A stretch of 64,000 nt of DNA from Gemmatimonadota bacterium (lineage in GTDB: Bacteria > JBHIER01 > G020348925): contig CP070758.1 in assembly GCA_020348925.1 (NCBI GenBank), forward strand, positions 62,001 to 126,000. Direction: 5' to 3'. The notes beneath the pieces are model-generated. The model had not been told where the DNA came from. It did no database searches and saw only the letters and a program-made list of their open reading frames with translations. Positions 3,461-24,097 of the stretch are shown here, piece by piece. The number at the start of each line of letters is the position of its first letter. The stretch's first letter is position 1. Both the position numbers and the translations under genes were made by a program.

Positions 3461-6025
3461 CTACTTCAACAGGAGCATTCTTTTGGTGTCTGTGAACTCA
3501 CCCGCCTTCAATGTGTAAAAATAGACGCCGCTAGTAACCTCTTTACCGGATTCATCCCTACCACTCCAGGTTATTGTGTAGTGACCCGCTTCTTTATGTG
3601 CGTCGACTAAAGTTTTGACTTCTTGCCCAAGGATGTTAAAGACCTTAAGAGAAGTGTAGGTCGCAGATGGTATCTGAAAACTGATTTCAGTTTCCGGATT
3701 GAAGGGATTCGGGTAATTCTGGCTGAGGGTATATGTCTCTGGCAATGCGGTATTCTGCTCAGCTTCCGCCCTTGTTTTCAGTGGGATGATGCCAGCGTTG
3801 GTATTGGCAAGGAGGATATCACCGAATTCAAGACCGAAATTAGGATCCTGAGGGATATTCGTAATATCATCGATGTCAAAAACGATCTCGACAGCAGTCC
3901 CGGAGCCTGGGCCGAAGGCCTCGCCGTGTTCGCCGTACATCACCAAAATGAGCCTATCCGATTTCATCGAATATCTCAATTTCATATCTTTGGTGAAGGA
4001 CGACGTTTTAAGTTCGTAAGGTACCAATGCGTTCGGTCCTAACTTGAAAACCATTTGTATACCGGCAATGGGGATTTTGGTACGGATATTAATGGGCAAG
4101 ACGCATCGAGAGCCTTTGGCCAATGTCAATCCAGTGTTCTGTCCAAACCACACTTCTGCTGGCACTACATCGCTATTCCAGGCAATGCTTTTTCCTCCAC
4201 TTTGATTAATGATGTTAATTATGCATACAACGTCCAATACATTTATTTCTTCATCGTCGTTGCAGTCAGCGGTCCAGAACTGATAGGGAGTGGGATCAAC
4301 ATACCCAAGTATAATATTTACAACAAGAGTAACATCGAGTGCATCAATATCACAATCAGCATTCACATCTCCTTTTTGCCATGCACCGGCCTCAATGATA
4401 GCTCTACAAGCATCTATTCGTCCAGCACCATACTCATTGTCCTTCCCCGGATCTCCTAACTCAACTGACGTCATTTGTAAATACTGAGATAACTGAGCGG
4501 GAGTTAAGTTGGGATTGTAGGATAGTAGAAGAGCCATCGCGCCTCCCACGTGCGGAGTAGCGGCTGAGGTTCCACTAAATGATCCATATCCTCCTCCCAG
4601 TTGAGTTGATTGAACACCAGCAGGAGCAGTCACGTCAGGCTTTAAGAGTCCTATTAACTCTCCTTCGATTCCTCCAATCCCCCAGGGATAATCTTGGTAT
4701 TCCGGTGGTATATCGTATGGATAACCTGAGTAAATTATTTGCATCCATGCTGCAGGTCCTCTTGATGAAGAGGAATACAGATTATCGTTGAGATCAGTGG
4801 CGCCCACCGCTGTAACCGCACCCAACCCCCCTATTAGAGTCTGATCAGGATGCAGCCAGGGTGGGGGACAGTTGGCTGGAGCACTGATATTGTAAGGCAG
4901 AGGATATTTAATAGGATTATTCCCTGAGCAATCCAGCTTTTCCCCGTCATTACCTGCAGCGCAGGCAAGAGATATCTCGGCAATTAACAGGTCCGAAGTT
5001 ACATTTCTCCATCTGGCATAGTCGGGAGTTTCAGTATACTCACCAGACTGACAACTAATCCCGAATGCTGTACCCCACGACATGCTGATAACATCTGCCC
5101 CAAAGTCAGCCGCAAATTCCAGACCTTTAATAAGGATATCCTCCGTCCAATCCAAATTGTCATCAGAAATTTTTACTGCCATTATGGTGGCATCTGGTGC
5201 AACTCCTGTATGGGTTCCACTTATACCATCACCGGCCGCAATCCCTGCTGCCTTCGTTCCGTGTCCGTTTTAGTCCATCGGATCATTGTCAGCAATGGGA
5301 TTGTTCGTGTCTATGCCAACAAAATCGAATCCATGGTGAATGAGTTCAAACCAGTTGCCAGATTCTGGAGGATATTCGTAATATTGGCCACTGCCGTCCC
5401 ACATGTGATCGCTCAGGTCGGGGTGGGTGTAATCAACTCCACTATCAATGATAGCAATCAACACACCCTGACCCGTATAGCCCTTATCCCAGACACCCGG
5501 TGCATTTATTTTGAGGACGCCTTCGGCAATATCAGAGCTACTTTTTATTGAAAGGCCACTCCGATCCTTTGTTAAATTTTCCTCAAATGGTGGTAACACT
5601 CTATCCCAACTTATCCTTTCAACTTCTTCAAAATCAGCAACTACTTCTATTACCTTCCTTGTGAGATTCGCACTTATACCATTACTTAACCAGTGACTTC
5701 CAACATGGGCAGCCTGTCCTGCACGTTCATGTCCTCTCAAAAAATCAAGAAGTTCGGCTTGAGACCTTTGGGCAAAGCTTTTCAGTTCCGAAATTACCGC
5801 CGCGCGTTTTTCCCTCTTTGCCATACCAGCAGTTATGGTTTGCAGGTAGATTTGAGAAATCTGAGGCTTCATTCTAATGCTTACGGGTATTAGTTTCTCA
5901 GGGCTGGAGGTTTCCATTACATTCCTCAATGCAGGTGTTATTTTCTCAATGGCGTCAGAACTCACTGAAAACACTATAGTAAATACCGCTATAAACACAA
6001 CCTTCACAAAATATTTGTTAGACAT
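3461..6025 (-). pseudogene. S8 subtilisin-like protease + dockerin + cohesin + FlgD-Ig/T9SS-type CTD, interrupted by in-frame TAA at 5270-5272
   Basis: ORFs 5270-6025 and 3461-5182 are in the same frame: ...IIDSGVD...DNDPMD*NGHGTKAAGIAAG...GTSAATPHVGG. Then dockerin GDVNADCDIDALDV/ADCNDDEEINVLDV, cohesin 'LPINIRTKIPIAGIQMVF', and tail QNYPNPFNP...KRMLLLK. Signal peptide MSNKYFVKVVFIAVF. Confidence 0.85.
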
Positions 6026-6256
6026 TTTTAAACCTCCGAGAAGAAAAACGAAAGAGACATAAACTGTACTCCCCACGAAAAACTGAACGCACTACCCAAC
6101 CCCAATGCAATCTTCATCATTTCGTTTTTGTCTTTAATCACCTCCTTTCAAAGCCTTAACAATTGGAGTAAGTTGAAAATTTCGCCGTCATTTCATCTGT
6201 GGATTTAGTAGAAAACGTATTCAAGAATACGGTCACCGCTGTCATGAGTCGCAATA

Positions 6257-8428
6257 TTAGGAATTGTCACTGAGAATTTGTCTTATCATTCCCACGATGT
6301 CCAATGCGTTGATTTCTCCGTCGCTATTAAAGTCCGCGGCCCACAGCTCGTACTCTCTCCATGTAATGGCAGGCCAGATAATGATGTGCACCACTATCAT
6401 CACATCAGCGACAGCAATTGTTCCATCTCTATTCACATCCCCCTTAGCCGGAGGTGGGGGTGTAAATTTTAGAACATGTAGTCCACCCAAATCAGAGGCC
6501 AGATATATGGTATCCCCTGAAACATATATTCCTCTTTCGTGGTATCCCTCGCCCATCATACCATAATGTCCAATCAAAAAAGGGCTTTCTGGATTTGAGA
6601 CGTCAAAAACTCGCAATCCCCCAATTTCGCTGGTAACATATAAAAATCCATCACTGGCGAAGATTTCTTCAGCAGTCCCACTAATTCCTGCGAAACCCAC
6701 CTCTTCAGGGATCTGAAGGTTTGAAATGTCTATAGCCATTATGCCGTTCTTACGATGGGCCACAGAAAAGCATCCGACAAAAGCATAGTCATCGTTTGCA
6801 GCTACAACATAGGAATGCCCATTAATTCCGAAACTACCAACCACCTTCGGTTCTCGCGGATTTGTAACATCAAGGATCGACAAACCCTCTTCAAACATAC
6901 TTAGATAAGCATATTTATCTGAGGCATAAATGTCTGTAACCCATCCCTCAACAGTGTATTGACAGATCTCATTCGGATGTTCGGGAGTTGAAATATCATA
7001 GATTCGAATCCCGGGGGGATTAGCAACGACAAAGGCCAAACTGTCCTGTATAAAGAATGATCCCACGTACATACTGGTGGTATCAGGAAATCCAACCTCT
7101 TTTGGAGTTTGAGAGTCCGATACATCCACAACGCGAAGTCCGTCACTTCCGGAGGCCAAATACGCAAAATGATTCGCAACCTCTATGTCATAACCTCGAG
7201 TCTCACAGTACCCTAACTCCTGCGTTGCCTCCGGGTTTGAGACATCAACCACTCTCAGCCAGGGATCAGTAACATAAGCATAACCGTCAGCGACAGAGAC
7301 ATCGTTCGCCCAACCCCCCGTAATATACTCGGCCACAAGTTGTTGATTCTCAATATCCGAAATATCGATGACCCTCAGCCCAGCGTATCCTACAGAAAGA
7401 TAAGCGTAATTGTCCTGTACATGAACTGTCCCACCGGAATGCTCCCCCCTTCCTATCAATTGTGGTATCAAGGGATTTGAGATATTCAGCACAAAGAACT
7501 CACAGCCCGCAACATAAGCGGTGTCATTCAATATGAATATGTCAAACCCACCAAAGGGTTCCTCACTGGCCACATACGGATTTTCTGGATCGGATACATC
7601 TATAATCGTCATCTGCCAGGAGACGATATAGACATAGTTTCCCAATAGTGCCACACTGGCAACAGGGGTATTATAACCTGGATCACAGAATCCAACTCCT
7701 TTAGGGTGCGCTGGATCGGAAATATCTGCAACCCAAAACCCCCAATTTGCATCAGGAGTAGGCCCATCGGAACAGGCGATGTAGGCATACTCTCCAGAAA
7801 TTACAACATCCTCAGCATAATCGCCCCTGAAACCCCACTCGGGCCCATAAAAACTGCCAAGTTCTCTGGGATTTTCAGGGTTTGATATATCGAGTATTTC
7901 CAAATTTCCCGAAATAAGATAGACGTAATTGTCGTATATATGAATCCGACGGCCACCCTTGTAAATGTACCCAACCAATCGGGGATTCTTGGGATCAGAA
8001 ATGTCGAAAACCCATAATCCATTATACCTTGTAACAACGAAAGCATAGTCGCCTAAAAGTGCAAGGTCTTCGACAACCCCGGATGTATAAATTCTACTGA
8101 CAAGAGTGGGATGTTCAGGATCGCTGATATCAAAGATCACGAGGGCTCCGCCTGCTCCAACGTAAGCGTAATTGCCCTTGGTGGTGGCACAAGTTGCAGG
8201 ACCCAAAAGGGCTCGACCCAATAAAGTGATGTTCTTGTCCTCTGTAATGGTTCCAGCGCTTAATTGAGACAGGTTTTCATTATGGCCATATAGAAAACTC
8301 TCTCTTGTCGGATGAGTTAGATCATGGATACCGTAAACTGACTGGGCATAGTTTACGGATACGGGTAAAATCAAAAGAGCTAAACAGATCGGAATTCTTG
8401 ATTGAATACATTTAACACTACGATTCAT
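6257..8428 (-). CDS. Exported LVIVD-repeat beta-propeller protein with C-terminal dockerin
   Basis: Signal peptide, many 'YAYV...GLxVxDISDPxxP' repeats, Pro linker, then GDVNRDGTIAVADV...AADFNSDGEINALDI. No CTD. Confidence 0.85.
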   Translation of the reverse strand: MNRSVKCIQSRIPICLALLILPVSVNYAQSVYGIHDLTHPTRESFLYGHNENLSQLSAGTITEDKNITLLGRALLGPATCATTKGNYAYVGAGGALVIFDISDPEHPTLVSRIYTSGVVEDLALLGDYAFVVTRYNGLWVFDISDPKNPRLVGYIYKGGRRIHIYDNYVYLISGNLEILDISNPENPRELGSFYGPEWGFRGDYAEDVVISGEYAYIACSDGPTPDANWGFWVADISDPAHPKGVGFCDPGYNTPVASVALLGNYVYIVSWQMTIIDVSDPENPYVASEEPFGGFDIFILNDTAYVAGCEFFVLNISNPLIPQLIGRGEHSGGTVHVQDNYAYLSVGYAGLRVIDISDIENQQLVAEYITGGWANDVSVADGYAYVTDPWLRVVDVSNPEATQELGYCETRGYDIEVANHFAYLASGSDGLRVVDVSDSQTPKEVGFPDTTSMYVGSFFIQDSLAFVVANPPGIRIYDISTPEHPNEICQYTVEGWVTDIYASDKYAYLSMFEEGLSILDVTNPREPKVVGSFGINGHSYVVAANDDYAFVGCFSVAHRKNGIMAIDISNLQIPEEVGFAGISGTAEEIFASDGFLYVTSEIGGLRVFDVSNPESPFLIGHYGMMGEGYHERGIYVSGDTIYLASDLGGLHVLKFTPPPPAKGDVNRDGTIAVADVMIVVHIIIWPAITWREYELWAADFNSDGEINALDIVGMIRQILSDNS

Positions 8429-8555
8429 GACCAGGACCTCAAATACGCATAGATTTAATCACAGGCTATAAAATTCGGGCTTCATGCTATAATCAATTTA
8501 GAATTTGTTACACCATTAATCACCTCCTTTATATAAAATGAAGAACGAATCTTAT

Positions 8556-8630
8556 AACCATCTCACGCTGTCAAGATAATCTTCAGATCATTTTAACAAG
8601 TCCTTTCTGTGTAAAAAGGTGTCAGGAAAC
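8556..8630. repeat. ~75 bp upstream element, copy 1 (shared with 10917-10995)
   Basis: AACCATCTCACGCTGTCAAGATA...TGTGTAAAAAGGTGTCAGGAA occurs upstream of both LVIVD-dockerin genes. Confidence 0.8.
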
Positions 8631-8645
8631 TCTATTTTTCAACCA

Positions 8646-10874
8646 TCATTGTACCATAACATTTCCTATAGTGTTTTCTCTAATTACGGGTCGGCCGAGA
8701 ATTGAGTTGATTATTCCCATCACATCCAATACGTTGACCTTGCCATCGCCATTATAGTCTGCGGCCCAGACTTCGTATGCTGTAGGTGCAGGAGAAGACC
8801 TTACGATAATATTCACGATTCCGATGACATCCCGAACATCAACGGTATCATCCCTGTTGATGTCACCTTTCCCTCCAAGGGGCAGGTCGCTGTTTAATAT
8901 GAGTAAACCTTGATTACCAGCGGTCACGTAAATTGTCTGATCCACGACGGCCAGCCCATCAGGCTGGTCCCAGGTTCCATACTGCCCCACACTCTCAGGG
9001 TTTGTCGGATCGGCCACATCGATAATGCGGATGCCGGAGGTGTAATTCATGTAGACATAAAAGTTTGAGACATTAAGATCTATCGACCAGTTTATGCCTT
9101 TTACCCAAACGTATCCTATCGGGGTGGGGTTCATCGGGTCAGACACATTCAGAATGTTCAGCCCACTGTTGGCCGTCACGTAAGCCAGGGTATCCTGTAC
9201 GGAGACTCCCTTGGTGAAGTCTGCCATCCACAGGACAACCTGGACTGGGTTTTGAGGATCGGTCACATCGATGACTTTGAGTCCGTTGTGTGAATTGGCC
9301 AAATAGGCGTATCCGTCGGAGACGTCCACGTGGTACAACTCCTGGCAGGGGAAGAATCCGACCTCTTGAGGAAAGATAGGATCAGAGACGTCAATGATGC
9401 TCAAACCCGTATCTCGTCGGGCCGCAAAGAGGAATCCCTTCGAAATGACCATATCGTCCACACCTGCAGGCCACTGGGAGATCTCCCGGGGTTTAGTCGG
9501 ATCGGAGATGTCAATCACCAGCAGAGCGTTGTGCGTGGCCAGATACACCTTCGAACCCTCTACAAGCACATCGGTGGCTCCCTTCTCCGTCCCCAGATGA
9601 CCTGCTCCATGGGGGCGAAAGGGATCGGAGATGTCTATGACCCACAGGCCGGCGTATCCACCGGCAACGTAAGCGTATTCCCCTGAGACAGCGACATCGA
9701 GAGCAAGATGCCCCGTGGCGTAAAAGGCCCTATCTAAAGGTTCATCGGGTATTGAAATATCGACGACCCACATCCCACTCCGGGCAGCCATATAAGCGTA
9801 ATCACCACTAATGATGAAATCCATAGGCAAGATGTACCAGGGAGGCTTACTGAGCTGGGTCACCACTGTTGGGTCTGTCGCCTCGGAGATGTCCACCACC
9901 AACAGATCCTCTCCCTCCACACCCAAATAGGCATAGGTCCCCTTTACGGCTATCTCACGAACGTCCCCGGCTACATCGAGGCTGCCCGCCTCCTGGGGCC
10001 ATGCGGGCTTGGAGAGATCCAAAACCCGGAACTCAGGATCCGTCCAGACACCAGCCAAAAGATGCCAATCGGCATCGACGAGATCATACGTCAAACATTG
10101 AGAGTACCACAGGCCCGCCCAGTCAGGATGTATTGGATCGGTGAGATCAAACACATCGACAAATAAGGCTCCGGTAGCTAAATAGAGATATTGGCCGATC
10201 ATCTCCATGGCGCTTGGGTACTCATCACTTGCTGCAAAATAATTAGCTCTGCTCGGACTCTCAGGGATCGATATATCAATAATGTGTACAAATCCCCAAA
10301 CATCCACAAGGTATGCATAATCACCTGACACCATCAAGATTCTGGGGTTCCCCAGATCAATTATTTCAATCGATATTGCGTGTTGAGGGTCAGAGATATC
10401 AAAAATCTCCAGGCCGAGGCCACAGGCAACATGGGCATATGTCCCGACAATTTCGATGTCGTGGACAAATCCCCTCGTCCTTATCTCTCCCACCAGGAGA
10501 GGTTGAGAAGGATCAGAGATGTCCAGCGTCTGAAGGAAGCTCCCGCAGCCGATGAAGGCATAGGGGACCACAACACTGACGCAATGGCATGCTCCCCAGG
10601 CCCACTCACCGAGGAAGGTTATGTTACTGTATTGGAATCCAGAATCATGGTAGAGTGGATATTCGTATTCAGGATCAGGAAAAGGGAAATAAGATGAAAA
10701 TTCTGCTCGGACACTCCGGTTATCCCGGTGAAGAGTATCAGGTTTCTGCAAAGCTTGCGCCTGAGTTAGCCCTGCTGCAATGAACAGGAGCAATAGTCCG
10801 ATCTTTATATTTGTAAGGTGATAGACTTGTGGTAAAATGAGAAGTTTTTTACAGGAGTGAAGTATATGGGACAT
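8646..10874 (-). CDS. Exported LVIVD-repeat beta-propeller protein with C-terminal dockerin (paralog of 6257-8428)
   Basis: SD AAGGAGG, hydrophobic signal, LVIVD repeats, then GDINRDDTVDVRDV...AADYNGDGKVNVLDV. Confidence 0.85.
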   Translation of the reverse strand: MSHILHSCKKLLILPQVYHLTNIKIGLLLLFIAAGLTQAQALQKPDTLHRDNRSVRAEFSSYFPFPDPEYEYPLYHDSGFQYSNITFLGEWAWGACHCVSVVVPYAFIGCGSFLQTLDISDPSQPLLVGEIRTRGFVHDIEIVGTYAHVACGLGLEIFDISDPQHAISIEIIDLGNPRILMVSGDYAYLVDVWGFVHIIDISIPESPSRANYFAASDEYPSAMEMIGQYLYLATGALFVDVFDLTDPIHPDWAGLWYSQCLTYDLVDADWHLLAGVWTDPEFRVLDLSKPAWPQEAGSLDVAGDVREIAVKGTYAYLGVEGEDLLVVDISEATDPTVVTQLSKPPWYILPMDFIISGDYAYMAARSGMWVVDISIPDEPLDRAFYATGHLALDVAVSGEYAYVAGGYAGLWVIDISDPFRPHGAGHLGTEKGATDVLVEGSKVYLATHNALLVIDISDPTKPREISQWPAGVDDMVISKGFLFAARRDTGLSIIDVSDPIFPQEVGFFPCQELYHVDVSDGYAYLANSHNGLKVIDVTDPQNPVQVVLWMADFTKGVSVQDTLAYVTANSGLNILNVSDPMNPTPIGYVWVKGINWSIDLNVSNFYVYMNYTSGIRIIDVADPTNPESVGQYGTWDQPDGLAVVDQTIYVTAGNQGLLILNSDLPLGGKGDINRDDTVDVRDVIGIVNIIVRSSPAPTAYEVWAADYNGDGKVNVLDVMGIINSILGRPVIRENTIGNVMVQ

Positions 10875-10916
10875 TGAATCTTCCTCCTTTTCGGCTTACT
10901 GACGAACGAGCCTCAC

Positions 10917-10995
10917 AACCATCTCACGCTGTCAAGATACCCTTCAAACCCCTTTGGGTCAAGCCCCTTTTTGTGTAAAAAGGTGTCAGGAACCT
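10917..10995. repeat. ~75 bp upstream element, copy 2
   Basis: Matches 8556-8630 and ends in the imperfect palindrome AAGGTGTCAGGAACCTT. Confidence 0.8.
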
Positions 10996-11095
10996 TAATC
11001 TTCCATTTTCATATGTTTCTCACTCCCAGTTCCCACGTCCGTGTATGGTAGATTACGGTTCGTGAGGAGTCTGAGAGAAAGCTAAAAACGAAAAA

Positions 11096-12568
11096 TCAAT
11101 CACTTAAAATTCGATGGATCAAACATACAACATCGAGTACATTCACCAGTTCATCTTTGTTGCAATCAGCGAGTAAGAGTTCGTCTGAGTTAGGCTGATG
11201 ATGGCCTATGATGATTTCGACGGTGAGCCACACATCTTGAACGTTTACCTTGCCATCAATGTTCACATCTCCTCTGACAAGAAGTTTCAATATCCCGTTC
11301 TCCGATGAGACGGGTATGATATTGATCCAGGGATCACCAAGTTCAACTCGGGAAAATACGAATTCATACTCTCCCAATGGGGCGTCTTCAACGATATCTA
11401 ATTGAATAGCACAGATCGATCCGAGACCAGGTTCAATGTATCCAAGAGTGGAGCTCGTGTTTCTTCTTTCTACCGGACCACCACAATCAACAAAAGCTAT
11501 ACGAATTCCTCTCTCAACAGAACTCCAAGAAGAGATAATACAATCTTTAGTCCTTTCAGTTCTAAGTACATCTTTCACAATTAAATTTTCAGTGTTAAAG
11601 AAAAGGTCAAGAACAAAAACTATAAGAGAAACATCATTCTCTAATTCAACTGAAATATTAACTTCTGAGGTATCGATAAACACTCTTCCACTCTCTACCC
11701 AAAGAATGGCAGGACTTATAGTGAGAATACCGTCAATGCTTGCAGAAGCAATTGGACCACTTGTAGAATCTCTCAGAGCTAAATTTTCAATATTTATATC
11801 GTAATCATTGTACGGGGTTTCTTCAATCACTTGAAAGACAATTTGAGCAATTGGTTGACTGATGGGCGACAGATAATGTGCTCCTCCAATTTTTCTGACT
11901 CGTATTCCACTCACTGCTGACTCCCACTCGTAATCCCACTGAGAAACTGATGTACTTCGTACGTCAGTCACAGTCAATACATCAGTGTCAAAATGAAGTT
12001 CGAACTCACATCCAAGAACACTTATATTATTCATTAATTCGAGGCTCATTCTTCTCTCTGAACTCCCAGGGAGACTAACGATCCACTCGGCCGCCAGAAT
12101 GGCGTTGCGAACAGAGAATACGCCGTTCTCTTTGGACATACTGAGAGTTGTGGGATACACAACAACATTACTCAAAATAAGGGGATACGTATCGAGAAGG
12201 GAGGAATCATTCACATCAAAGACTACGTTTGCCAAAATCCCTGATCCCGGAAAGATTTTTGAACGAACAGCCACTCTTACACCATTATCGACAATGGACC
12301 ATTCTAAAGCGTGAATCCTACTACTGTGTGTCAGCATGACATCACGTATGACTATTTCATCAGTATCGAATACCAGATCAAAATCACACCCATTCATAGG
12401 TTTCTCGTTTCGAAGATAGATCGGCACGATGTTACCCGTGCTTCCGGGAAATCCACCACCCCCGATAACCTTCAAGAGCACATTTTCGGACTGGACAGAC
12501 GTGAAGACAGTGGTAAGAGTGACGAATACTATTACAGGAATACATTTTTTTCGAATATCTGTCACCAT
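11096..12568 (-). CDS. Scaffoldin-like protein: three cohesin-like domains + C-terminal dockerin
   Basis: Signal peptide, then three ~130 aa beta-sandwich repeats (PGS...VPIYLRN...GCDFDLVFDT...PGSGILANVVFDV...ENG; PGS...LELMNN...GCEFELHFDT...IAQIVFQV...IDG; ...VELEND...LDLFFNT...PGLGSICAIQLDI...ENG). Ends in RGDVNIDGKVNVQDV...ADCNKDELVNVLDV. Start codon uncertain (12568-12613). Confidence 0.8.
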   Translation of the reverse strand: MVTDIRKKCIPVIVFVTLTTVFTSVQSENVLLKVIGGGGFPGSTGNIVPIYLRNEKPMNGCDFDLVFDTDEIVIRDVMLTHSSRIHALEWSIVDNGVRVAVRSKIFPGSGILANVVFDVNDSSLLDTYPLILSNVVVYPTTLSMSKENGVFSVRNAILAAEWIVSLPGSSERRMSLELMNNISVLGCEFELHFDTDVLTVTDVRSTSVSQWDYEWESAVSGIRVRKIGGAHYLSPISQPIAQIVFQVIEETPYNDYDINIENLALRDSTSGPIASASIDGILTISPAILWVESGRVFIDTSEVNISVELENDVSLIVFVLDLFFNTENLIVKDVLRTERTKDCIISSWSSVERGIRIAFVDCGGPVERRNTSSTLGYIEPGLGSICAIQLDIVEDAPLGEYEFVFSRVELGDPWINIIPVSSENGILKLLVRGDVNIDGKVNVQDVWLTVEIIIGHHQPNSDELLLADCNKDELVNVLDVVCLIHRILSD

Positions 12569-12723
12569 ATTCATCCCCATTATTTCAAAGTATTCCGAAG
12601 ATTTGAAATACAACCCTGAATTCGTGTCCCAGAATAAAAACGGACGTATTCACAAAGACCACTAACACAAAAGTGTTAACGATAAAATTCAAACTTTCAG
12701 ATTTTCAGAGACATTGATTAATC

Positions 12724-12930
12724 GACATTTCAGATCTCTCATCACCTCCAGTAAAAGATAAGAGTGATGATTGCCACCCTCCAACTCTCGAAAGTTCAAT
12801 GTATCAAACTCACACATTCATGTCAAGCAAATTCGTGACAAAATATGTTGCAAGTCAATTATTTTTCATATGTTACACTTTTTTGCATTGAGCACGAGAA
12901 TATTAACACAAGAATTAACAATTTTTTTAT
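12724..12930 (-). promoter_or_regulatory. Duplicated promoter + 5' leader, copy 1 (sigma70-type TTGACA-17-TACATT)
   Basis: -35 at 12821-12826 and -10 at 12798-12803. The whole block is homologous to 21066-21270. Confidence 0.75.
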
Positions 12931-13153
12931 CGATTTCAGATAACTTCTCCTGATCTTTTTTCGAAATAAATCCACCCTATCTAACTCGCTTGGCTTCAGG
13001 AAACTAGTGATGTTTCCCCTGATTTCATGATCCAGAATCCAAAACCACCTTATCAAATCCAGCCTTCACATCCTTCCTGATATCTCGAACAGCGGCAGAT
13101 TTTCCGGTCTCAATCGTACGGCCTCATTTTCCATGCCAACAACTCAAAACTGT

Positions 13154-13195
13154 AAAAAAACCGCCCACGGCCTTGAAACCGGAGGCGGTTTTCTT
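13154..13195 (-). terminator. Intrinsic terminator after S8 protease 2
   Basis: Minus strand AAAACCGCCTCCGGTTTCAAGGCCGTGGGCGGTTTTTTT; homologous to the terminator at 3401-3445. Confidence 0.8.
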
Positions 13196-13217
13196 GTCTG
13201 AAAAAGAGAGTACAAAC

Positions 13218-15724
13218 TTACTTCAGCAGCAGCATGCGCTTGGTGGCTGTGAACCGGTCGGCTTTCAACGTGTAGAAATAGATACTGCTGGAAACTTCTC
13301 TACCGAATTCATCCCTACCGCTCCAGGTAACTGTATAGTGCCCCACTTCCCTATGTTCGTCTACCAGAGTTTTGACTTCTTGCCCAAGGATGTTAAAGAT
13401 CTTGAGAGAAGTGTATGTCGCAGATGGTATCTGAAAACTGATTTCAGTTTCAGGATTGAAGGGATTGGGATAATTCTGGGAGAGCATAAAGGTGTTGGGC
13501 AACGACTGATCCGCCAATTTAGGTGATCCCGTCCTCCTTATGACCACTGGAATCTCCGTGCCTGTGGCGGTGCATAAAATTGCTCGGGTTATGTGAAGAC
13601 TACCCCCCGACTTCTGGGGAGACATATGAACAATGGGTCCGGTTCCTGGAACCATTTCATCACCCGTGGGGTTGGCCAGCATGACCATCAGTTCACCATC
13701 CTCATTTCTGTAATTCAAGTCCAACATGGCACTGCGATCTGTAGTCTTAGGCTCTCCTGGAGTCCACGCCTGTGGGTTATAGGATATCCAGAGCTGAACA
13801 CCTGCAACTCCTACACTGTTTTCCAACATGACACTATAAGCACCCGTCGGTCCCGGAACCTTCGACAGGTAAACTATAGCTGGCTCTGATGGAATTTCAG
13901 GAATACTGCGTCTATCCTCTCCGTACAAGACCTTATCCCATAGCAGCATATAGTCAAGAAGATCTATCTCTCCATCGTAGTTCATATCACCCGCCCACTG
14001 TTGGTAATCGTCAGGATCGTCATATCCTAAGATAATGTCGAGCATAACAGGAGGATCTAAAAGATCGACAGACATATCTCTATTCATGTCACCTTTTTCC
14101 CCGGCACCTGCTTCTAAAAGCGCCCAGTAGGCATTGACCCTCCCATACCCGAGCTCATCACATCGTCCATCGATGTAGTCATACAGGTCCTGACGGACTT
14201 TTTCTGCAGACTTCTGGAGGATTTCTTGCACTTCATCGGAATTGAGATCGGGATACATGCTGAGGACGAGAGCCGCTGTGCCGGCCACGTGAGGACAAGC
14301 CGCTGAAGTACCCCGGAACAACCTATAATGTTCGAATCCTGATGAGCTAAAGTTGCCGGCGCTTATCATAATGCTTGTGGTCCATATATGGACACCAGGA
14401 GCAGCCACATCCAGATTCGGGCCGTAGCTGCTGCCCCACCCTTCACCGTCGCAGCTTGAGGGGTTTTTTCTTTCATCACATTCACTGGTAGCACCCACAG
14501 CAATGACTTCTGAATACCTGGCAGGGTATCTAATCGGCTTGGTGTTCTTATTTCCTGCACCACAAATGATTACGCACCCCAAGGAGTCTCTGCCAGCATT
14601 TTTTGCCCTCTGAATGGCGTAGTGAACAGCATCGTAGTCGGAAGGCATAGCCCAACTGTTGCTCAAAACATGAGCACCCCAAGACCAGGCCGTATCGAAA
14701 CCAGCAGCCACTGAATTGGGTGTCGTCACCAACTGGCATAAGGTCTCGCACTCAATTTCGCCTATTCGGATAGGCATCATTTTACAATTGTATCCAATGC
14801 TGGCAACCCCCGTGTCATTGTTCGTTGAAGAAGCAGCGATCCCGGCACAACACGTTCCGTGATCGTCTTCTTCTTCCATGTCCGGATTCGTAAAGTTATC
14901 ATCATCCCAGGTATCGTAGCCGCCCACGAGCTTCCATTTGAGATCTCCGTGATCATCCCACACTCCACAATCGATGATAGCAATAACGATGTCTGGACTG
15001 CCTGTACAGATGTCCCATGCCTCCGGGGCGTCAATGTCCGCGTCCGGAATACCTACCTCAGCCGGGCTGTTGCTTCCGGTATTGCTCAACCCCCACTGTT
15101 CAGGGTAATATTCGTCATTGACCGCACCCAGTGGCTCCGTTTGCAGTATGAAATTGGGATGGGCGAAATCTGTAAGAGGACTTTCGTAATACAGGTTGGC
15201 CATCTCGAGGGCATGCTGAGGGATACCGCTTTTTACGGTAACAGGTCACTGTACGTTCCTTTTCTGACGATTTCAACACCGTGTTGCTCGTTGAAAGACT
15301 CAATCTCTGGCTCAGACACCCAAGACTTGAATTGAACAACAAATTCGTCTGTCAGGAACATCCTGCCATCGTGGGAGTCGTAGACCGGGTTCAGTCGTAG
15401 GATCCTTGGCGCCGACTTGAGGACCTCTATAGTCTGCTTCACCTGAGCTAAAGTGACATCTTTTTTAATCTTTAGCACGTTTATTCTGCCTTTTCCAACA
15501 GTACTCTGGGGATCGAAGGTGTCAAGATAGAGAACACTGGAGACAACGATCTCCATCTCTGATAACGTTACGCCCTCATTGAAAGTGACGGCTACCACTT
15601 CAGTGGAGAGTTCCAGAGATATTTTCCTGCCACCGGAGTAATAGAAGTCGTCTGTGTGGCCAGCGTGAACCACAACTGCCACTAAAATGAAAGTGGCCAC
15701 TGCAAGTAGTGTATTCCTTTTCAT
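13218..15724 (-). pseudogene. S8 subtilisin-like protease + dockerin + cohesin + CTD, frameshifted near 15240
   Basis: 15233-15724 encodes signal peptide and prodomain, ending SDLLP*. The other frame continues VTVKSGIPQHALEMANLYYES into 13218-15203 with triad motifs IIDCGV, HGTCCAG, GTSAACPHVAG, then dockerin GDMNRD.../GDMNYDG, cohesin and QNYPNPFNP tail. Confidence 0.8.
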
Positions 15725-15919
15725 TCTTCTTCACCTCCAGGTTTTTCCAAATGTTTCTTTCAATTGAGGTTTTTCCCCTTTTTGGTAGCAGCTATAAGCG
15801 ATCACCTCCCTTCCAAGTAAGTTGGTGAAAATCCTGTCCCCTGAGAGCTGATCTTCATATTATCACATCATAACCACCCCCTCCAAGATTGAAGTTGTCT
15901 GTTTAATGTGTCTTTCCCC

Positions 15920-15948
15920 TTGACAAATGGGGAGCAATTGGCTATTTT
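15920..15948 (+). promoter_or_regulatory. sigma70-type promoter facing opposite to the flanking genes
   Basis: TTGACA (15920-25), 17 nt spacer, TATTTT (15943-48). Confidence 0.6.
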
Positions 15949-15954
15949 GGGATT

Positions 15955-16075
15955 GAGACCCAAAAAGGGAAGGCCCTTGTGAATCCAATAGGATTCGGGC
16001 GTATCACCTTTCTGGTCTCACACGGGCTGTCGGCCTTGGTCTTTAGCCGGTCCGGGCTGACAGCCTTCTCTTTTG
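15955..16075 (+). ncRNA. Candidate small RNA (rod-like hairpin + terminator hairpin)
   Basis: Begins 7 nt after the -10 box. GAGACC...GGTCTC encloses AAAGG/CCTTT, GCCC/GGGC and GAATCC/GGATTC. Then an 11 bp stem GGCTGTCGGCC/GGCTGACAGCC and TTCTCTTTT. Confidence 0.5.
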
Positions 16076-16081
16076 TCGTGA

Positions 16082-18442
16082 CTATTTCAAAAGTATCATT
16101 TTGCGCGACTCCGAGAATAGCCCTGTTTGCAGCCAATAGAAATAGACTCCGCTGCCCACCTCTCTCCCCGAAGTGTCCCGTCCATCCCAGCTCACGGTGC
16201 AGTGTCCGGCATCCTGAACCTCATCGACCAGCGTCCGCACTTCCTGCCCGAGAATGTTATAGATCTTCAGGGTGGTGCGGAGAGGATATCTACTATCTGG
16301 TATCTGGTATCTAATATCTGTAGATTCATTGAACGGATTGGGATAGTTTTGCGCCAGCGAGAATGTCAGCGGAGTCAATCCTTCTTCTCCATCGTCATTA
16401 ACCGAGGTGCCTTCACACACCAATACGTTGACACCACCGTATACTGTCCCACACCAGATATTCCCTGCACTATCAATGGCCACTTCCCCTATGATATTGT
16501 CCGATATGGGGCTATTCTCTATGGTGTACACTACCCACGTTGCGCCATCAAACTTCACCAGGCCATAGCTTGTCCCAAACCACATGTTGTCATCTCTGTC
16601 CACTGCTATTGACCAAATTCTGTCACTCTTCAATCCACTGTTCGAGGTGTCATACGTCACCCAGATTGAGCCATCAAATTTGCTCACACCGGTCAATGTC
16701 CCAAACCACATGCTCCCCTTACCGTCTGGAGCGATGGATACCACCCTGTTACTTGCCAGACCGCTATTGAATGTGGTGTAGGTCGTCCACGTAAAACCGT
16801 CAAATTTGTTCACTCCATCTGCCGTCCCGAACCAGACATTTCCCTTTTCGTCAACAACCACCGAATACACGTGATCATTTGCCAATTCACTGTTCTGAGG
16901 GGTGTATACGGTGCAGGTTGTATCATAAAGCCTGACGGCTCCTCCACCAACGGCAATCCATTTGTTATTCTCATTATCTACTGCAATAGAACGTACAGTG
17001 AGATAGGCCAACCCGAAGTCTGGAAGATGATAGTTTGTCCAATCAACCCCGTCAAACTTGGTTACCCACTTTATTATTGTGGAGTTTATGGCTCCAGAGC
17101 CTCCAAACCAGATATTCCCATCATGATCTTCTGCAATCGCATCAACCATTTCAAATTGTACCCCACTGTTGTCCGGATTGAAGACTGTCCAATCCGATCC
17201 ATCCAACACACAGGCTGCACCCAGATTATAATATCCGGAGACTCCAAACCACTTCCGGTTCGCGTGATCAATTAGAATAGTGCGTATGTAATTATCTGGT
17301 AATCCGCTGTTGGAGGACTCGTAATGGGACCAGTTTTCACCGTCAAATATACACAAACTGGCCCATCCTTTCCTGAAAGGCCTGGTCCCGAACCATTTCT
17401 TGCCCTCGGGATCAATGGCCACCGATAACACTCCGTTGCTGGTTAATCCGCTGTTTTCCATCGTGTAATTGACCCAGTTGTGCCCGTCGTAAGAGTACAC
17501 CCCGGTCATCATGCTCACACACCAGACCGTACCCGCACTATCTATGGCGATGTCATGTATGTTATTGTCTCTCAAATCGCTATTAAACATGTCAAAACTT
17601 ATCCAGGATTGGCCGTCAAAAAAGCTGATGCCACCGTCCCCAACACTCCACAACGTACCCATGCAAGCTATCCAAATGTTGCCCTTGTTGTCCTCGGTGA
17701 TGGCCGAAATGTTGTTGGAAGCGATATCTGCATTCTCTGTGTCATACGTCGTCCAGACCGACCCGTCAAATCGACAAATGCCACTTCCATCGACCAATTC
17801 GTCACCCGCTGTACCGAACCAGCAGGTCCCCGATCTGTCCACATAGACTGACCACACCAGGTTGCTGACAAGACCGCTGTTTGAGGTGGTGTAACTTGTC
17901 CATTCGGTCCTGTCGAACATGCTCACACCTCTTGTTGTTCCAAACCACAGACGATCCCAGTGATCCAGGAAAATCGAACTAACAGAATCGCAGATCAGCC
18001 CACTGTTCATGCTGTTATAATAGGTCCAGTTCTGCCCGTCAAATTTGGCCACCCCCCGAATTGTAGAAATCCACTTGTTTCCCAGACTGTCTATCACTAT
18101 ATAACCGACACGATTATACGGAAGCCCTTCAGCCCTGGTGTAGTAAGTGACGTCCTCGTGAGAGTCGGTGAGGCTTCGTTTGATCAACCCGCCCCGGGTG
18201 CCCTCCCAGACGTAATCACCTTCGAAAGCCACATCCGCAACGATGGAGGCATTGGTGTAATTTCGCCAGGTTTCTGAACTCCCACTCTGGGCCCATAATG
18301 TGCTAAAGAGAAAGAACAGAGTCAAAACTATGCTTGCCCGGATTTTCCAACACGTAAAAACAGACCATAAGTATTTGTCTTCTCCTTCTTGTCTCATATT
18401 GAGAAAGAAACTCATCTTCTTGGCCTCTCTTTGCCTTTTCAC
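16082..18442 (-). CDS. Two-component-regulator-propeller (Reg_prop) repeat protein with FlgD-Ig/T9SS-type CTD
   Basis: Repeats 'WFGT..GVSxFDGxxWTxYxTxNSGLxSNxVxSIAxD'; tail QNYPNPFNES...RKMILLK. ATGA overlap with the upstream gene. Confidence 0.85.
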   Translation of the reverse strand: MKRQREAKKMSFFLNMRQEGEDKYLWSVFTCWKIRASIVLTLFFLFSTLWAQSGSSETWRNYTNASIVADVAFEGDYVWEGTRGGLIKRSLTDSHEDVTYYTRAEGLPYNRVGYIVIDSLGNKWISTIRGVAKFDGQNWTYYNSMNSGLICDSVSSIFLDHWDRLWFGTTRGVSMFDRTEWTSYTTSNSGLVSNLVWSVYVDRSGTCWFGTAGDELVDGSGICRFDGSVWTTYDTENADIASNNISAITEDNKGNIWIACMGTLWSVGDGGISFFDGQSWISFDMFNSDLRDNNIHDIAIDSAGTVWCVSMMTGVYSYDGHNWVNYTMENSGLTSNGVLSVAIDPEGKKWFGTRPFRKGWASLCIFDGENWSHYESSNSGLPDNYIRTILIDHANRKWFGVSGYYNLGAACVLDGSDWTVFNPDNSGVQFEMVDAIAEDHDGNIWFGGSGAINSTIIKWVTKFDGVDWTNYHLPDFGLAYLTVRSIAVDNENNKWIAVGGGAVRLYDTTCTVYTPQNSELANDHVYSVVVDEKGNVWFGTADGVNKFDGFTWTTYTTFNSGLASNRVVSIAPDGKGSMWFGTLTGVSKFDGSIWVTYDTSNSGLKSDRIWSIAVDRDDNMWFGTSYGLVKFDGATWVVYTIENSPISDNIIGEVAIDSAGNIWCGTVYGGVNVLVCEGTSVNDDGEEGLTPLTFSLAQNYPNPFNESTDIRYQIPDSRYPLRTTLKIYNILGQEVRTLVDEVQDAGHCTVSWDGRDTSGREVGSGVYFYWLQTGLFSESRKMILLK

Positions 18443-20661
18443 TTTTCTCCCAGGATATGGTTGGTAGAGAAGGCAGGATTCAGGATCTTATTTACTATAC
18501 CAACCACGTCCAAGATATTAACCTCCCCGTCACTGTTGAAGTCTGATGCCCATAGCTCATATTCTGTCGGAGAGGGTGGAAGCTTTAAAATAATATGTAC
18601 TACTCTGAGGACATCGAGCACGTCCACATTGTCGTCTCTGTTGACATCACCTTTTGCACCGGGCGGAAGGGTCAAACTCCATACCCCTGCCTGGGTGCCC
18701 GCATGAAGAAGATAATTACCCTCCCGAACCAGCACCATGGTATGATCAAGTTGATACGAATGGTCAGCTTGTTTAAAAGGCAATTGTGGGTCCATCTCAG
18801 TCCACTTTGCGCCACCATTGGTGCTCTTAAAAATACCTTGCCGGCCCGTCTGGGTATAAAGGATATCAGGATTTGATGGATCAATACGTATCGATAGAAT
18901 GCCATCGGTGAGGGATGGAAGTCCCTCATTTATAGAAGACCATGTGGATCCTGCATTATCACTCTTAAGAATATGCTTAGCCGAACCCGTGGATCCTACG
19001 TACAATATGCTACTATTCGCAGGGTTGATAGTAAGGGTGGTTATAAGCTCGGGAAGTATGCATCCCCAATTCAAGCCAGAATCATAAGTCTTGGCCAAAC
19101 CGGGGGTGAACGTATGTGGTTGGATGTAAGCATAAATTACGGCTGTATTCGTAGAATCTACAGTGATCCAGGTAACTAATCCCCGCAGCAATTCGTCCCA
19201 GGATTCACCACCGTTGGTGCTTTTATACAAAGCACCTCCTTCCGTACCACCAGTCCCTAAGTAAAGCACATTTGTCGAATCAGGATTTATCGCTATTGAA
19301 TAGGGAGCCTCCCAAGCCAAACTCAGGCCGCTATCGATTTCTGTCCAGGAGTGACCATGATCGATGCTCTTTTGCACGCCGGATCCGGTCATATATATAA
19401 TATTGGTACGTAGCGGATCAATCTCAATAGATGATATCCATCCCCTCTTGAGTCCCGTCTCCAGCCAGATTTCACCACCATCCAAACTTCGAAAGAGACC
19501 TTCGCGTTTGCTACCGGCATAAAGGATGGTCTCATCCTGAGGGTCTTTGGTTAAAGCCGTAATCATGGGATACCCCATCTCAACTTTGGACCAGGTGAAC
19601 CCTCCGTCCACACTTTTTAATAATCCCCCTGTGTGCAATCCTGCATATACAGTACTCGGATTCAGTGGATCAATGCAGAGAGAATTTACGTCATTGGTGT
19701 ATTCTAAATCTTCGCTATTGACGTACACCTCCTCCCAAGTCCACCCGGTATCGGAACTCCTCAGAATTTCTCTGCCCGTACCGGCAAACAATATGTCGCT
19801 ATCGGAAGGATCGATACATATGGATTCAATCGAAGAGTTCAAAATCTGTGAGCTGTAAATCGTAGCCCAGGAAACTCCGCCATCGGTACTTCTAACTATC
19901 AAACCCTCAGCCATTCCAACGCAGCCACCGACATAAAGAGTGCCAGTGTGATTGAGATCTATAGTCTTAGGCCAATATAATTGAGGAATATAAATCGCAT
20001 CTGACCACGTAGAGCCAGCGTCTATCGTCTTAAAAATCGGTCCCCCTTCTATCAACACATAGACTACATCTGGACCAGTGGGATCCATTGCCATATCCCT
20101 AATGAGACCGAATAGCCCTATGGAGTCAGTAGCCGCTTCCCAGCTCTGTCCGCCATTTATCGTCTTGTAAACTACATCGTTGCTACCGGCAACGTAAATA
20201 ATATCAGGATCCAGCGGATTTATGATTATGGAATTTCCAACCTTGTCGTTGATCTTTGTCCAGGTCTCACCATAATCCGAAGACTTATATAACTCCTGCC
20301 AGTTGCCCGCATACACATTCCGGGGCTCCAGAGGATCGACCGCAACTGAAGTCACGCACTCAATCTGGCCAATCGTTACAGGGATACCTCTCAATCCACC
20401 CTCAATACTCTTGAACACGCCGCCATAAGCAGTTCCTGCATAGACTCTATCGCTTGACACCGGATCGACGGCCACAGACAGCACCTCCCCCCCATAAGGT
20501 CCGTGGCTTATCCACTGTTGATCTTGACTGGCTAAGGATGAAGATTCCAAGTTAGAATAAGTAATTATCGTAGCGATTGATAAAAATATATTCATAGAAA
20601 CCATGGTAAATTTAACTTTGATGTTAATTCTTATTTTTTTCTCTTTTGGTATCATGACCAT
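18439..20661 (-). CDS. BNR/Asp-box (Ycf48/VPS10-like) beta-propeller protein with C-terminal dockerin
   Basis: Repeats 'DPxxPxxVYAG...KSxDGGxTW'; 'WISHGPYGG' start of the mature domain; GDVNRDDNVDVLDV...SDFNSDGEVNILDV. Start codon uncertain. Confidence 0.85.
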   Translation of the reverse strand: MVMIPKEKKIRINIKVKFTMVSMNIFLSIATIITYSNLESSSLASQDQQWISHGPYGGEVLSVAVDPVSSDRVYAGTAYGGVFKSIEGGLRGIPVTIGQIECVTSVAVDPLEPRNVYAGNWQELYKSSDYGETWTKINDKVGNSIIINPLDPDIIYVAGSNDVVYKTINGGQSWEAATDSIGLFGLIRDMAMDPTGPDVVYVLIEGGPIFKTIDAGSTWSDAIYIPQLYWPKTIDLNHTGTLYVGGCVGMAEGLIVRSTDGGVSWATIYSSQILNSSIESICIDPSDSDILFAGTGREILRSSDTGWTWEEVYVNSEDLEYTNDVNSLCIDPLNPSTVYAGLHTGGLLKSVDGGFTWSKVEMGYPMITALTKDPQDETILYAGSKREGLFRSLDGGEIWLETGLKRGWISSIEIDPLRTNIIYMTGSGVQKSIDHGHSWTEIDSGLSLAWEAPYSIAINPDSTNVLYLGTGGTEGGALYKSTNGGESWDELLRGLVTWITVDSTNTAVIYAYIQPHTFTPGLAKTYDSGLNWGCILPELITTLTINPANSSILYVGSTGSAKHILKSDNAGSTWSSINEGLPSLTDGILSIRIDPSNPDILYTQTGRQGIFKSTNGGAKWTEMDPQLPFKQADHSYQLDHTMVLVREGNYLLHAGTQAGVWSLTLPPGAKGDVNRDDNVDVLDVLRVVHIILKLPPSPTEYELWASDFNSDGEVNILDVVGIVNKILNPAFSTNHILGEK

Positions 20662-20835
20662 GGCCTGCCATTGGATGAGGTTCGATTTGAGTCTGAACAA
20701 ACACAACTGTAGAAAAGAGCATTAATAGAACAAGACTCCGACCATATATGTGATTTCGAGTTAGATCTGAAAGCGCTGAAACTCATATTAGGAGCAAATT
20801 AGATGAAACATCAATCTATCCGAAGAGTCTTGATT

Positions 20836-21025
20836 AGAACATAGCTCGCCTCGCTCGCAACGTTCCCAAGGGGCTTTCGCCCCTATGGCGAATTTCGATG
20901 CTCCGCCAGCTCACATCGAAATTCTGTACCCGTTGAGGTAAAGCACATCCTTTCCCCCAAAACCCCTGATACATCTCGAAAATCGTAGAATTTCCGAGAT
21001 GTTGAGTTACACTACATGTTAAAAA
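20836..21025. other. Multi-hairpin element inside the leader of 18439-20661 (possible degenerate attC or structured RNA)
   Basis: AGGGGC-TTTC-GCCCCT, GAATTTCGATG...CATCGAAATTC, ACATCTCG...CGAGATGT, bounded by AACAT...ATGTT(AAAA). Confidence 0.35.
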
Positions 21026-21065
21026 GTAAAATCAATAGGTAGATTTAAATGAGAAATAGTAAATT

Positions 21066-21270
21066 GACATTTCAGATCGCTCATCACCTCCAGTAAAAAG
21101 AAAAAGTGATGATTGCCACCCTCCAACTTTCGAAAGTTCAATATATCATACTTGTTCATTCTTGTCAAGCAAAATCATAACAAAAAATCTTGCAAGTCTA
21201 ATTTTTTTCATGTCCTTACAATTTTTGCATCGAACACGAAAATATTAAAAAGAATTGACAATTTTTTCGA
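21066..21270 (-). promoter_or_regulatory. Duplicated promoter + 5' leader, copy 2 (TTGACA-17-TATATT)
   Basis: -35 at 21163-21168 and -10 at 21140-21145; aligns with 12724-12930. Confidence 0.75.
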
Positions 21271-22548: not shown

Positions 22549-22582
22549 AGTGTCCTCAGTACATTCATTTCTCGAATATATT

Positions 22583-24049: not shown

Positions 24050-24097
24050 AAGAAATATTCCCTGAAAAGCTGGATCAGTAAGAACTCATCCCATGAA

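Follow-up and report, generated by a model that had tools for sequence, protein, structure and literature searches.

Cohesin–dockerin assembly is a textbook feature of cellulose breakdown by Gram-positive anaerobes. The hosts of clostridial cellulosomes are monoderm, and the complexes are anchored to their cells by SLH or sortase. In clostridial cellulosomes, such as that of (Pseudo)Bacteroides cellulosolvens, cohesins and dockerins are arranged on adaptor and anchoring scaffoldins in a hierarchical assembly (PMC5590126). Here, a stretch of 64,000 nucleotides from a Gemmatimonadota bacterium (assembly GCA_020348925.1, contig CP070758.1, positions 62,001 to 126,000 of the forward strand) was analyzed. 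This whole stretch is referred to as the window, and positions are given within it unless a genome contig is named. The window contains a cluster, or island, of genes whose products carry dockerins, cohesins and the C-terminal sorting tails of a type IX secretion system (T9SS). We favor, with moderate confidence, the reading that this island is one patch of a genome-wide and non-cellulosomal system of predicted cohesin–dockerin assembly in a diderm bacterium. As in the clostridial systems, putative adaptor and anchoring scaffoldins can be recognized. In contrast to these systems, with their cargo of carbohydrate-active enzymes (CAZymes) and their carbohydrate-binding modules (CBMs), anchoring here would be of the T9SS type and the cargo consists mostly of proteases and beta-propellers. 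Compared with the record cellulosome producer, (Pseudo)Bacteroides cellulosolvens (PMC5590126), the present genome has as many modules or more: from at least 73 (by Pfam) to 176 (by a profile made from the genome itself) cohesin modules, and from at least 148 to 291 dockerin open reading frames (ORFs).

The closest described system was reported in Candidatus Stygibacter of the Cloacimonadota. A cellulosome-like complex was inferred there, with dockerin-bearing enzymes of the GH18, GH57, S8/S53 and C25 families (Williams et al., 2021; PMC8542988). One cohesin scaffoldin of 3,755 amino acids with CBM2 and CBM3 ends in a T9SS C-terminal domain, which was proposed to fix the scaffold to the surface of its own cell (PMC8542988). 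The likeness to the present genome is considerable. Both organisms are diderms of the Fibrobacteres–Chlorobi–Bacteroidetes (FCB) type known from metagenome-assembled genomes (MAGs), and both encode signal-peptide enzymes with C-terminal dockerins. Poly-gamma-glutamate genes were also noted there, and capB and capC lie in the window here (PMC8542988). The core idea of a T9SS-anchored cohesin scaffold that holds dockerin-bearing peptidases in an FCB-type diderm is thus already published (PMC8542988). The differences lie elsewhere. A handful of dockerin enzymes is described for Ca. Stygibacter (PMC8542988), whereas about 105 cohesin proteins and 150–290 dockerin proteins were counted here. Glycoside hydrolases are almost absent here, the adaptor has no CBM, small three-cohesin adaptors occur, dockerin–cohesin–tail cassettes sit on enzymes, and the organism belongs to another phylum-level group. 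What is new, then, is the scale, which equals or exceeds the known maximum, together with the scarcity of CAZymes and the division into tail-bearing sockets and tail-less plugs in a phylum of two species. In the literature found on dockerins or cohesins together with type IX secretion, or on the peptidases of candidate phyla, that article was the only comparable one (supplements aside). No literature was found on LVIVD–dockerin proteins, nor on dockerins with cohesins in Latescibacteria.

Two further systems are instructive. In Porphyromonas gingivalis, gingipains and the peptidyl-arginine deiminase PPAD are displayed on the surface via PorU and PorV, with the cargo attached directly, and we know of no cohesin–dockerin layer in this species. 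The present genome shares with it the sorting domains, a PorU gene adjoining a PorV-like gene, C25 peptidases, and a PAD_porph protein among the module-bearing proteins; homologs of GldKLMN/PorKLMN were not found here. Non-cellulosomal cohesins and dockerins, of which the Archaeoglobus fulgidus cohesin 2xdh is an example, likewise place both modules on one polypeptide and on proteins other than CAZymes. These occur as isolated genes or small sets, whereas the modules here are found at the scale of a proteome and are tied to a secretion tail.

The island was first pointed out in an initial annotation of the window, which described proteases, beta-propellers and a scaffoldin between 3461 and 21270; the last ORF in fact ends at 20706. 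It comprises nine ORFs, all on the minus strand, which make up seven genes, and it sits on one 41-kb piece of the assembly (window 1–31947). Sec-type signal peptides are apparent by eye at all seven N-termini. In the order of transcription, the first gene encodes a BNR/sortilin-type propeller (18439–20706; Pfam Sortilin-Vps10 111.3 bits) with a C-terminal dockerin at 18469–18666 and no tail. It is followed by a Reg_prop beta-propeller (16082–18442) that has a T9SS tail (16085–16345; E 3.9e-36) and no dockerin. The first of two S8 proteases, here S8b, is split. An ORF at 15233–15724 holds a signal peptide and a weak match to a fervidolysin-type pro-domain, and is probably the detached N-terminus in another frame. 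The catalytic part (13218–15203) carries a divergent dockerin (13914–14108), a cohesin (13530–13871) and a T9SS tail (13221–13472). The adaptor (11096–12613) consists of a signal peptide, three cohesins (12113–12481, 11717–12106 and 11282–11713) and a dockerin (11099–11287), with no tail and no CBM. Two LVIVD propellers follow, each with a C-terminal dockerin and no tail: LVIVD-2 at 8646–10874 (LVIVD 235.7 bits; dockerin 8685–8882) and LVIVD-1 at 6257–8428 (LVIVD 264.8 bits; dockerin 6260–6457), in which only 4 amino acids separate the end of the dockerin from the stop codon. The last gene, S8a (3461–6076, as ORFs 5270–6076 and 3461–5182), encodes a signal peptide and pro-region, an S8 subtilase, a dockerin (4196–4387), a cohesin (3764–4132) and a T9SS C-terminal sorting domain (3464–3715). 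The two Peptidase_S8 matches of the island score 112.7 and 145 bits, and the Asp/His/Ser triad motifs are readable in S8a as well as in S8b.

The dockerins of the island are well supported. Pfam Dockerin_1 (cut-off 22.9 bits) was matched above its cut-off in six of the nine ORFs scanned, which is six of the seven genes as had been claimed, at 25.5–40.7 bits: LVIVD-1 40.7, BNR/sortilin 37.9, S8a 36.5 (4.4e-23 with a profile made from the same genome), LVIVD-2 35.6, adaptor 31.0 and S8b 25.5. The S8b dockerin is divergent and has prolines in helix 1. Pfam and the own-genome profiles also agree that the cargo with a dockerin and no sorting tail consists of the two LVIVD propellers and the BNR propeller, and the three cargo dockerins share 58–63% mutual identity. 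In an alignment of 117 dockerins of the genome, each of the calcium-loop residues G6, D7, D18, D42, D46 and D53 is either invariant or shows a conservation of 90% or more. In the adaptor family, the second segment of the dockerin ('ADC..D..VN.LD.VC') is kept. A degenerate internal dockerin without the first calcium loop forms a cluster of its own, and all 11 of its 11 members lie between the cohesins of cohesin–dockerin–cohesin–tail proteins, including the one encoded at 40390–42282. In two proteins with a Fib_succ_major domain (L085:2807-3661 and L085:9015-10826) the dockerin is N-terminal (residues 32–71) and not C-terminal.

The cohesins are very divergent. Pfam Cohesin (cut-off 24.1 bits) detects only the adaptor in the island, and weakly so (29.0 bits, with no single significant stretch). 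A cohesin profile was seeded on 31 Pfam-positive matches from the same genome. This profile places three cohesins in the adaptor (E 3e-22, 9e-22 and 1e-24), together with a single module in S8a (1.8e-17) and another in S8b (2.5e-20); Pfam misses the latter two, and the S8b cohesin was called by this profile only. The description of the adaptor as three cohesins plus a dockerin is thus borne out by Pfam together with the own-genome profile. Pfam found no CBM family in the adaptor at E<=0.01. A phmmer search of the whole adaptor against PDB sequences returned weak dockerin matches alone (E 0.02–1), such a single-sequence search being too insensitive. An alignment of 118 cohesin modules of the genome, with the S8a module as the first row, has a mean column identity of 18%, and 37 solved sequences are matched by its profile at E<=0.01, with 3.1e-16 as the best value; the titles of all except one identify them as cohesins. 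From this alignment, AlphaFold2 predicted the S8a module with a predicted local distance difference test score (pLDDT) of 90.3 and a predicted template-modelling (TM) score of 0.81. All 33 Foldseek matches to PDB that were read at E<=0.001 are cohesins. The top match is the non-cellulosomal 2xdh of A. fulgidus (E 2.3e-6), and the next are type I cohesins from solved cohesin–dockerin complexes, with query-normalized TM scores of 0.72–0.75. A failure to adopt a cohesin fold, which the initial annotation had named as a possible refutation, was not seen for this module. The adaptor model was built from four homologs only and shows three beta-sandwich domains (pLDDT 70–88). Its whole-chain Foldseek search is noisy, and the lone match of low root-mean-square deviation (rmsd) is again 2xdh, at rank 42 (target-normalized TM score 0.82, rmsd 3.0). 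The top ranks for this 490-aa model are long multi-Ig chains with rmsd 17–36 A and TM <=0.22, which were judged meaningless. A complex prediction for adaptor residues 28–430 (4-row alignment) with the LVIVD-1 dockerin (117-row) gave 0.12/0.13 against a mark of 0.32 in a run without controls, and speaks neither for nor against binding.

The modules extend far beyond the island. Pfam matched 148 of the 150 dockerin candidates that were scored (527 were found in total), all above the cut-off, and gave 96 cohesin matches, 73 of them above the cut-off. The own-genome profiles for dockerin, cohesin and tail were run at i-E<=1e-5 over all 19,916 ORFs. They detected dockerins in 291 ORFs, tails in 256 and cohesins in 105, the last with 176 modules in total, and gave 0 matches on reversed-sequence decoys made from the complete ORF set. 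Architectures were counted in 371 ORFs, after 85 of 456 module ORFs at contig edges had been dropped. The dockerin-only class is the largest (150 ORFs), followed by tail only (90), dockerin + tail (56), cohesin + tail (33), dockerin + cohesin + tail (25), dockerin + cohesin (15) and cohesin only (2). The classes are complementary, as had been proposed from the island. Among the 75 complete cohesin ORFs, 58 carry a tail, 15 others a dockerin and 2 neither, and a tail is absent from 165 of the 246 complete dockerin ORFs. The dockerin lies within 30 aa of the C-terminus in 133 of the 150 dockerin-only ORFs, and the tail domain within 10 aa of it in 193 of 204 complete tail ORFs. By a crude heuristic, 113 of the 150 dockerin-only ORFs and 64–82% of those in the tail classes have a signal-peptide-like N-terminus, against 391/1090 controls.

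The initial annotation had cited modules at 31592–31947 and 40365–45060 of the window as a hint that the system is genome-wide. The census upholds this extension, while the two places mean less than was thought. The genome is a MAG, 96.3% complete, and its single 5.04-Mb 'contig' consists of pieces joined by 205 runs of 100 N (about 206 contigs), so that gene adjacency across the joins is not real. Three joins fall in the window (31948–32047, 40265–40364 and 45061–45160), which makes 31592–31947 a contig end and 40365–45060 a separate short contig. The former holds part of a dockerin protein that is truncated where the contig stops (31595–31947, minus strand; dockerin 31667–31861). The latter encodes, on the plus strand, the protein already mentioned with a cohesin, a degenerate internal dockerin, a second cohesin and a T9SS tail (40390–42282; Cohesin 38.7 bits, FlgD_ig 46.3 bits). 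The apparent fusion of a truncated ATP synthase beta subunit with a dockerin near 31.9 kb is artefactual and results from the 100-N join, which cuts the beta gene at 187 aa.

The tails and their secretion machinery were assessed in the same way. FlgD_ig was matched above its cut-off by S8a (36.7 bits) and the Reg_prop protein (34.5) and just missed by S8b (25.3). Por_Secre_tail scores of 19–27 bits in these three proteins (26.8 in S8a) fall just under its cut-off of 27 bits, and the own-genome tail profile matches the three tails at E 1e-36 to 1e-38 (2.5e-38 in S8a). A search for T9SS core genes had been suggested, and its outcome was divided. SprA is present (SprA_N, 153 bits, on a 2000-aa ORF). 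The PorU sortase scores 738 bits against a curated cut-off of 420, at a locus distinct from the C25 peptidase of the window. PorU is immediately followed by a PorV-like barrel (190 bits, below its cut-off of 250), and the genome has 16 PorV-family matches. GldKLMN were not found. A GldK candidate was rejected, as the model matches only generic FGE-sulfatase proteins in an unrelated neighborhood. The TIGRFAMs for GldL, GldM and GldN were also blank in the control genomes, none of which carries the system, so an absence of GldKLMN from the MAG does not follow. With about 256 tail ORFs, SprA and PorU in place, either the motor is too divergent for the models or the system works without it.

The cargo was surveyed in 100 of the 281 module ORFs. 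These came from the 19 stretches of 20 kb with the highest density, which makes the sample biased. Propeller-type proteins (FG-GAP/ASPIC, LVIVD, SBBP, PD40, PQQ and Reg_prop) account for 29 and peptidases for 21 (seven M28, four C25, three S41, two C1, two M1 and one each of M14, M23 and S8), and Laminin_G_3 is frequent. An esterase, a nuclease-family protein, a PAD_porph deiminase and a DUF3160 protein occur singly. Glycoside hydrolases make up 2 of the 100 (GH31 and an alpha-amylase) and none of the nine island ORFs, so the description 'without CAZymes' nearly holds for the whole system. Of the hallmarks of a cellulosome, CAZymes are not the main cargo and the adaptor has no detected CBM. 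A tandem array of six paralogs of about 1000 aa each, M28 aminopeptidases with a C-terminal dockerin and no tail, was found at C1:2581621-2601620. The PAD_porph domain (Porphyromonas-type peptidyl-arginine deiminase; E 3.9e-41) lies at C1:3474485-3476203 on an ORF that is dockerin-only by the own-genome profile. The P. gingivalis enzyme of this family is a T9SS cargo.

A model of how these parts may work together can be proposed. The Sec signal peptides, as judged by eye and by the crude heuristic, would export all parts to the periplasm. From what is known of the Bacteroidota T9SS, proteins with a sorting domain would cross the outer membrane via SprA and be fixed at the surface by PorU and PorV-type barrels. 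Since most cohesin modules are on tail-bearing proteins, the surface would be lined with sockets. Dockerin-tagged peptidases and binding proteins of the beta-propeller or lectin-like type would plug into these sockets in a calcium-dependent manner, and tail-less adaptors with several cohesins and a dockerin of their own would multiply them. Branching would become possible through proteins that combine dockerin, cohesin and tail, the two S8 proteases among them, as these could both hold and be held. In the simplest wiring of the island, the adaptor would receive the dockerins of LVIVD-1, LVIVD-2 and the BNR propeller on its three cohesins, and its own dockerin would sit on the cohesin of a tail-bearing protein; the match of three cargo dockerins to three adaptor cohesins is plausible. 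Judged from the sequence, the organism probably builds a protein-degrading surface complex. Its likely function would be to bind and degrade proteinaceous polymers of the sediment. Contigs with pieces at least 99% identical were found in sediment metagenomes from three studies.

Several points weigh against this proposal. It leaves the outer-membrane route of the tail-less cargo unexplained. The TIGRFAMs for GldL, GldM and GldN and Pfam GldM_1st have no match in this 96.3%-complete MAG, a weak objection given the blank controls. The MAG is fragmented, with the 85 of 456 module ORFs noted above at a contig edge. When 62 sampled ORFs were checked with Pfam at E<=1e-5, 48 of the 55 called dockerins and 6 of the 11 called cohesins were confirmed, so the true counts lie between the Pfam and the profile figures, and the high counts rest partly on the own-genome profiles. 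Dockerin-only genes lie within 10 kb of cohesin genes in 29 of 174 cases, against a random expectation of 28.3 +/- 4.6. Finally, both island S8 genes are interrupted in the assembly, and a 1-nt insertion at 5130 in S8a was seen in one of the sediment runs described next (X4; depth about 5).

The breaks in the S8 genes were followed in contigs of four public sediment runs (X1–X4) aligned to the island region, at depths of about 3–8, at which differences between runs seen in a single contig may be errors. In S8a, an in-frame TAA (5270–5272) lies between 'NDPMD' and the catalytic-His motif 'NGHGT'. This codon reads GAA (Glu) in two X2 contigs and one X4 contig and TAA as in the window in one X3 contig, while run X1, which may be the source of the assembly, gives no cover there. 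In S8b, the two ORFs are in different frames and overlap by about 10 nt, and the main ORF has neither the signal peptide nor the pro-part, which are in the other frame. This split recurs gap-free in X1 and X2 contigs. A programmed frameshift or stop read-through was considered but lacks support, the S8a stop being polymorphic (TAA/GAA) and no slippery heptamer being visible by eye at the S8b junction. The picture of S8 proteases with a dockerin, a cohesin and a sorting domain accordingly stands for the modules, by Pfam, own profiles and the S8a fold, and not for intact genes in this assembly. The two are paralogs with 36% identity overall, and their tails are about 85% identical as counted from the alignment. 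In X1 and X4 there are contigs in which 3721 is joined to 13447, across the S8a and S8b tails. The high identity of the tails together with these joins suggests gene conversion or assembly cross-talk between them. Of the 120 matches listed for the 312-aa dockerin–cohesin–tail cassette of S8a, about 49 are full-length. Its heads among these include S8, sialidase-like, LVIVD, M6, VWA and beta-helix domains, and some of the records are named KSB1 or Zixibacteria.

The lack of enrichment of dockerin-only genes near cohesin genes also means that the island need not be a functional unit. It is among the denser patches of the genome, with 6 dockerin/cohesin ORFs per 20 kb, and other stretches have 7 or 8. 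The phylum is represented in the genome set searched by this genome and one sister genome (G001), a set of two species. The sister genome is 87% complete and has 97 cohesin candidates, with 12 strong matches against 11 here at the same threshold. It encodes an adaptor of four cohesins and a dockerin on a 12.8-kb contig without other module genes. No neighborhood matching the island was found on the one contig examined, which counts against the island framing. The adaptor family itself is small: among 5.8 billion clusters, four proteins were found, namely the adaptor, a paralog in the same genome and two metagenome proteins 38–39% identical to it, and among 79 pattern matches in genome contigs there was no relative. 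The gene content that had been described thus stands, while unit status is doubtful, with no co-localization genome-wide, no matching neighborhood on the sister contig examined and both protease anchors broken in this assembly. In our view, the island is one local concentration within a dispersed, genome-wide system.

How do the tail-less proteins reach the surface? One alternative answers this directly by treating the dockerin as a secretion tag in trans. Tail-less dockerin proteins would bind the periplasmic cohesins of tail-bearing proteins and pass the T9SS translocon with them as a folded complex, so that some 150 Sec-exported proteins would reach the surface only by docking and riding through SprA. 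Such a tag would explain the placement of cohesins nearly always on tail-bearing or dockable proteins. The 150 complete ORFs with a C-terminal dockerin, no tail and no cohesin, 113 of them signal-peptide-like, would be its clients. A lipobox-like motif occurs in just 1 of the 113, and the secretin is limited to one ORF of 384 aa. The tail-less genes also do not look like decayed tail-bearing genes. A tail-like sequence was found within 600 nt downstream in 1 of 147 tail-less dockerin genes (0 of 147 random controls), and the closest LVIVD-1 homolog (75% identity) has the same 723 aa, a dockerin and no tail, so truncation, named at the outset as a possible refutation, is not what was found. Among the 120 matches listed for LVIVD homologs, about 41 carry tail families, 5 a dockerin and none both, the distant ones bearing a tail where the present lineage has a dockerin; the C-terminal module thus appears to have been exchanged rather than truncated. 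However, 81 of the 246 complete dockerin ORFs have a tail of their own, and the dockerin is therefore not a simple substitute for the tail. The one secretin would allow a type II route, and the same gene content would be expected if the proteins were released by vesicles or lysis and then bound again. No precedent was found in the literature on dockerins or cohesins and type IX secretion (supplements aside). We regard both this route and the role of the dockerin as a tag in trans as unlikely.

A second alternative denies the pairing altogether. The dockerin-like repeats would be calcium-binding modules that stabilize proteins or bind ligands, the cohesin-like modules would be Ig-like spacers, and the island would be a cluster of exported proteins. 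Non-cellulosomal cohesin- and dockerin-like modules whose partner is unknown are reportedly widespread (Peer et al., 2009, as cited in PMC8542988). The divergence of the cohesin modules, at a mean column identity of 18%, would fit this picture, as would the fact that 218 of 279 dockerins fall in one broad cluster, which makes one-to-one specificity not evident. On the other hand, 73 of the 75 complete ORFs with a cohesin have a tail or a dockerin as well, and this complementary architecture is hard to explain otherwise. Adaptors with cohesins and one dockerin are conserved in the sister genome, and the predicted fold of the S8a module matches dockerin-binding cohesins of solved complexes. The absence of pairing is held to be as improbable as the docking-dependent export discussed above. 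Least probable of all is a system for adhesion to or contact with cells, prey or particles, in which propellers and lectin-like modules are the working parts and the proteases are accessory: 29 of the 100 sampled module ORFs are propeller-type, many with Laminin_G_3, and three of the four non-protease proteins of the island are propellers without a known catalytic role, but 21 of the 100 are peptidases of at least nine families, including the six-gene M28 array, which points to bulk proteolysis.

The surroundings of the island offer further observations. A terminator-like hairpin of 15 pairs lies directly 3' of the S8a stop (3405–3438, minus strand), found by a consensus scan that is not above shuffles (21 sites in the region vs 15.7 +/- 4.8). 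The best sigma-70-like promoter match upstream of the first island gene (21140–21168, minus strand; 11/12 with TG) is weak and likewise comes from a scan not above shuffles (35 sites vs 32.2 +/- 4.8). Upstream of the island, a lipoprotein-like LVIVD protein without dockerin or tail is encoded at 21511–22548, and at 22583–24049 a protein of 488 aa without a Pfam match, whose C-terminus resembles an outer-membrane barrel; the region 21511–26121 also holds two ORFs (303 and 371 aa) without a Pfam match. The capC gene and a capB-like Mur-ligase gene for poly-gamma-glutamate synthesis (26102–28005) adjoin the gene for the C25 (gingipain-family) peptidase with propeptide and T9SS tail (27798–31556, minus strand), which is on the same contig as the island. 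The ATP synthase operon occupies its own 8-kb piece (32048–40264) and includes a gene of the 23S-rRNA-IVP family (37605–38006). Its alpha subunit is at most 77% identical to those of Thermodesulfobacteriota/Syntrophia-type MAGs, a likeness that may mean that the piece is mis-binned or the gene transferred.

To conclude, the genome-wide assembly system favored here would have several consequences if its parts bind. It would raise a concrete question of secretion: how does tail-less cargo cross the outer membrane? The genome would also be a large natural library of orthogonal binding pairs for protein engineering. If the parts bind, plug-and-socket assembly would be a general way for outer-membrane bacteria to organize surface enzymes, here for the degradation of protein in sediments.

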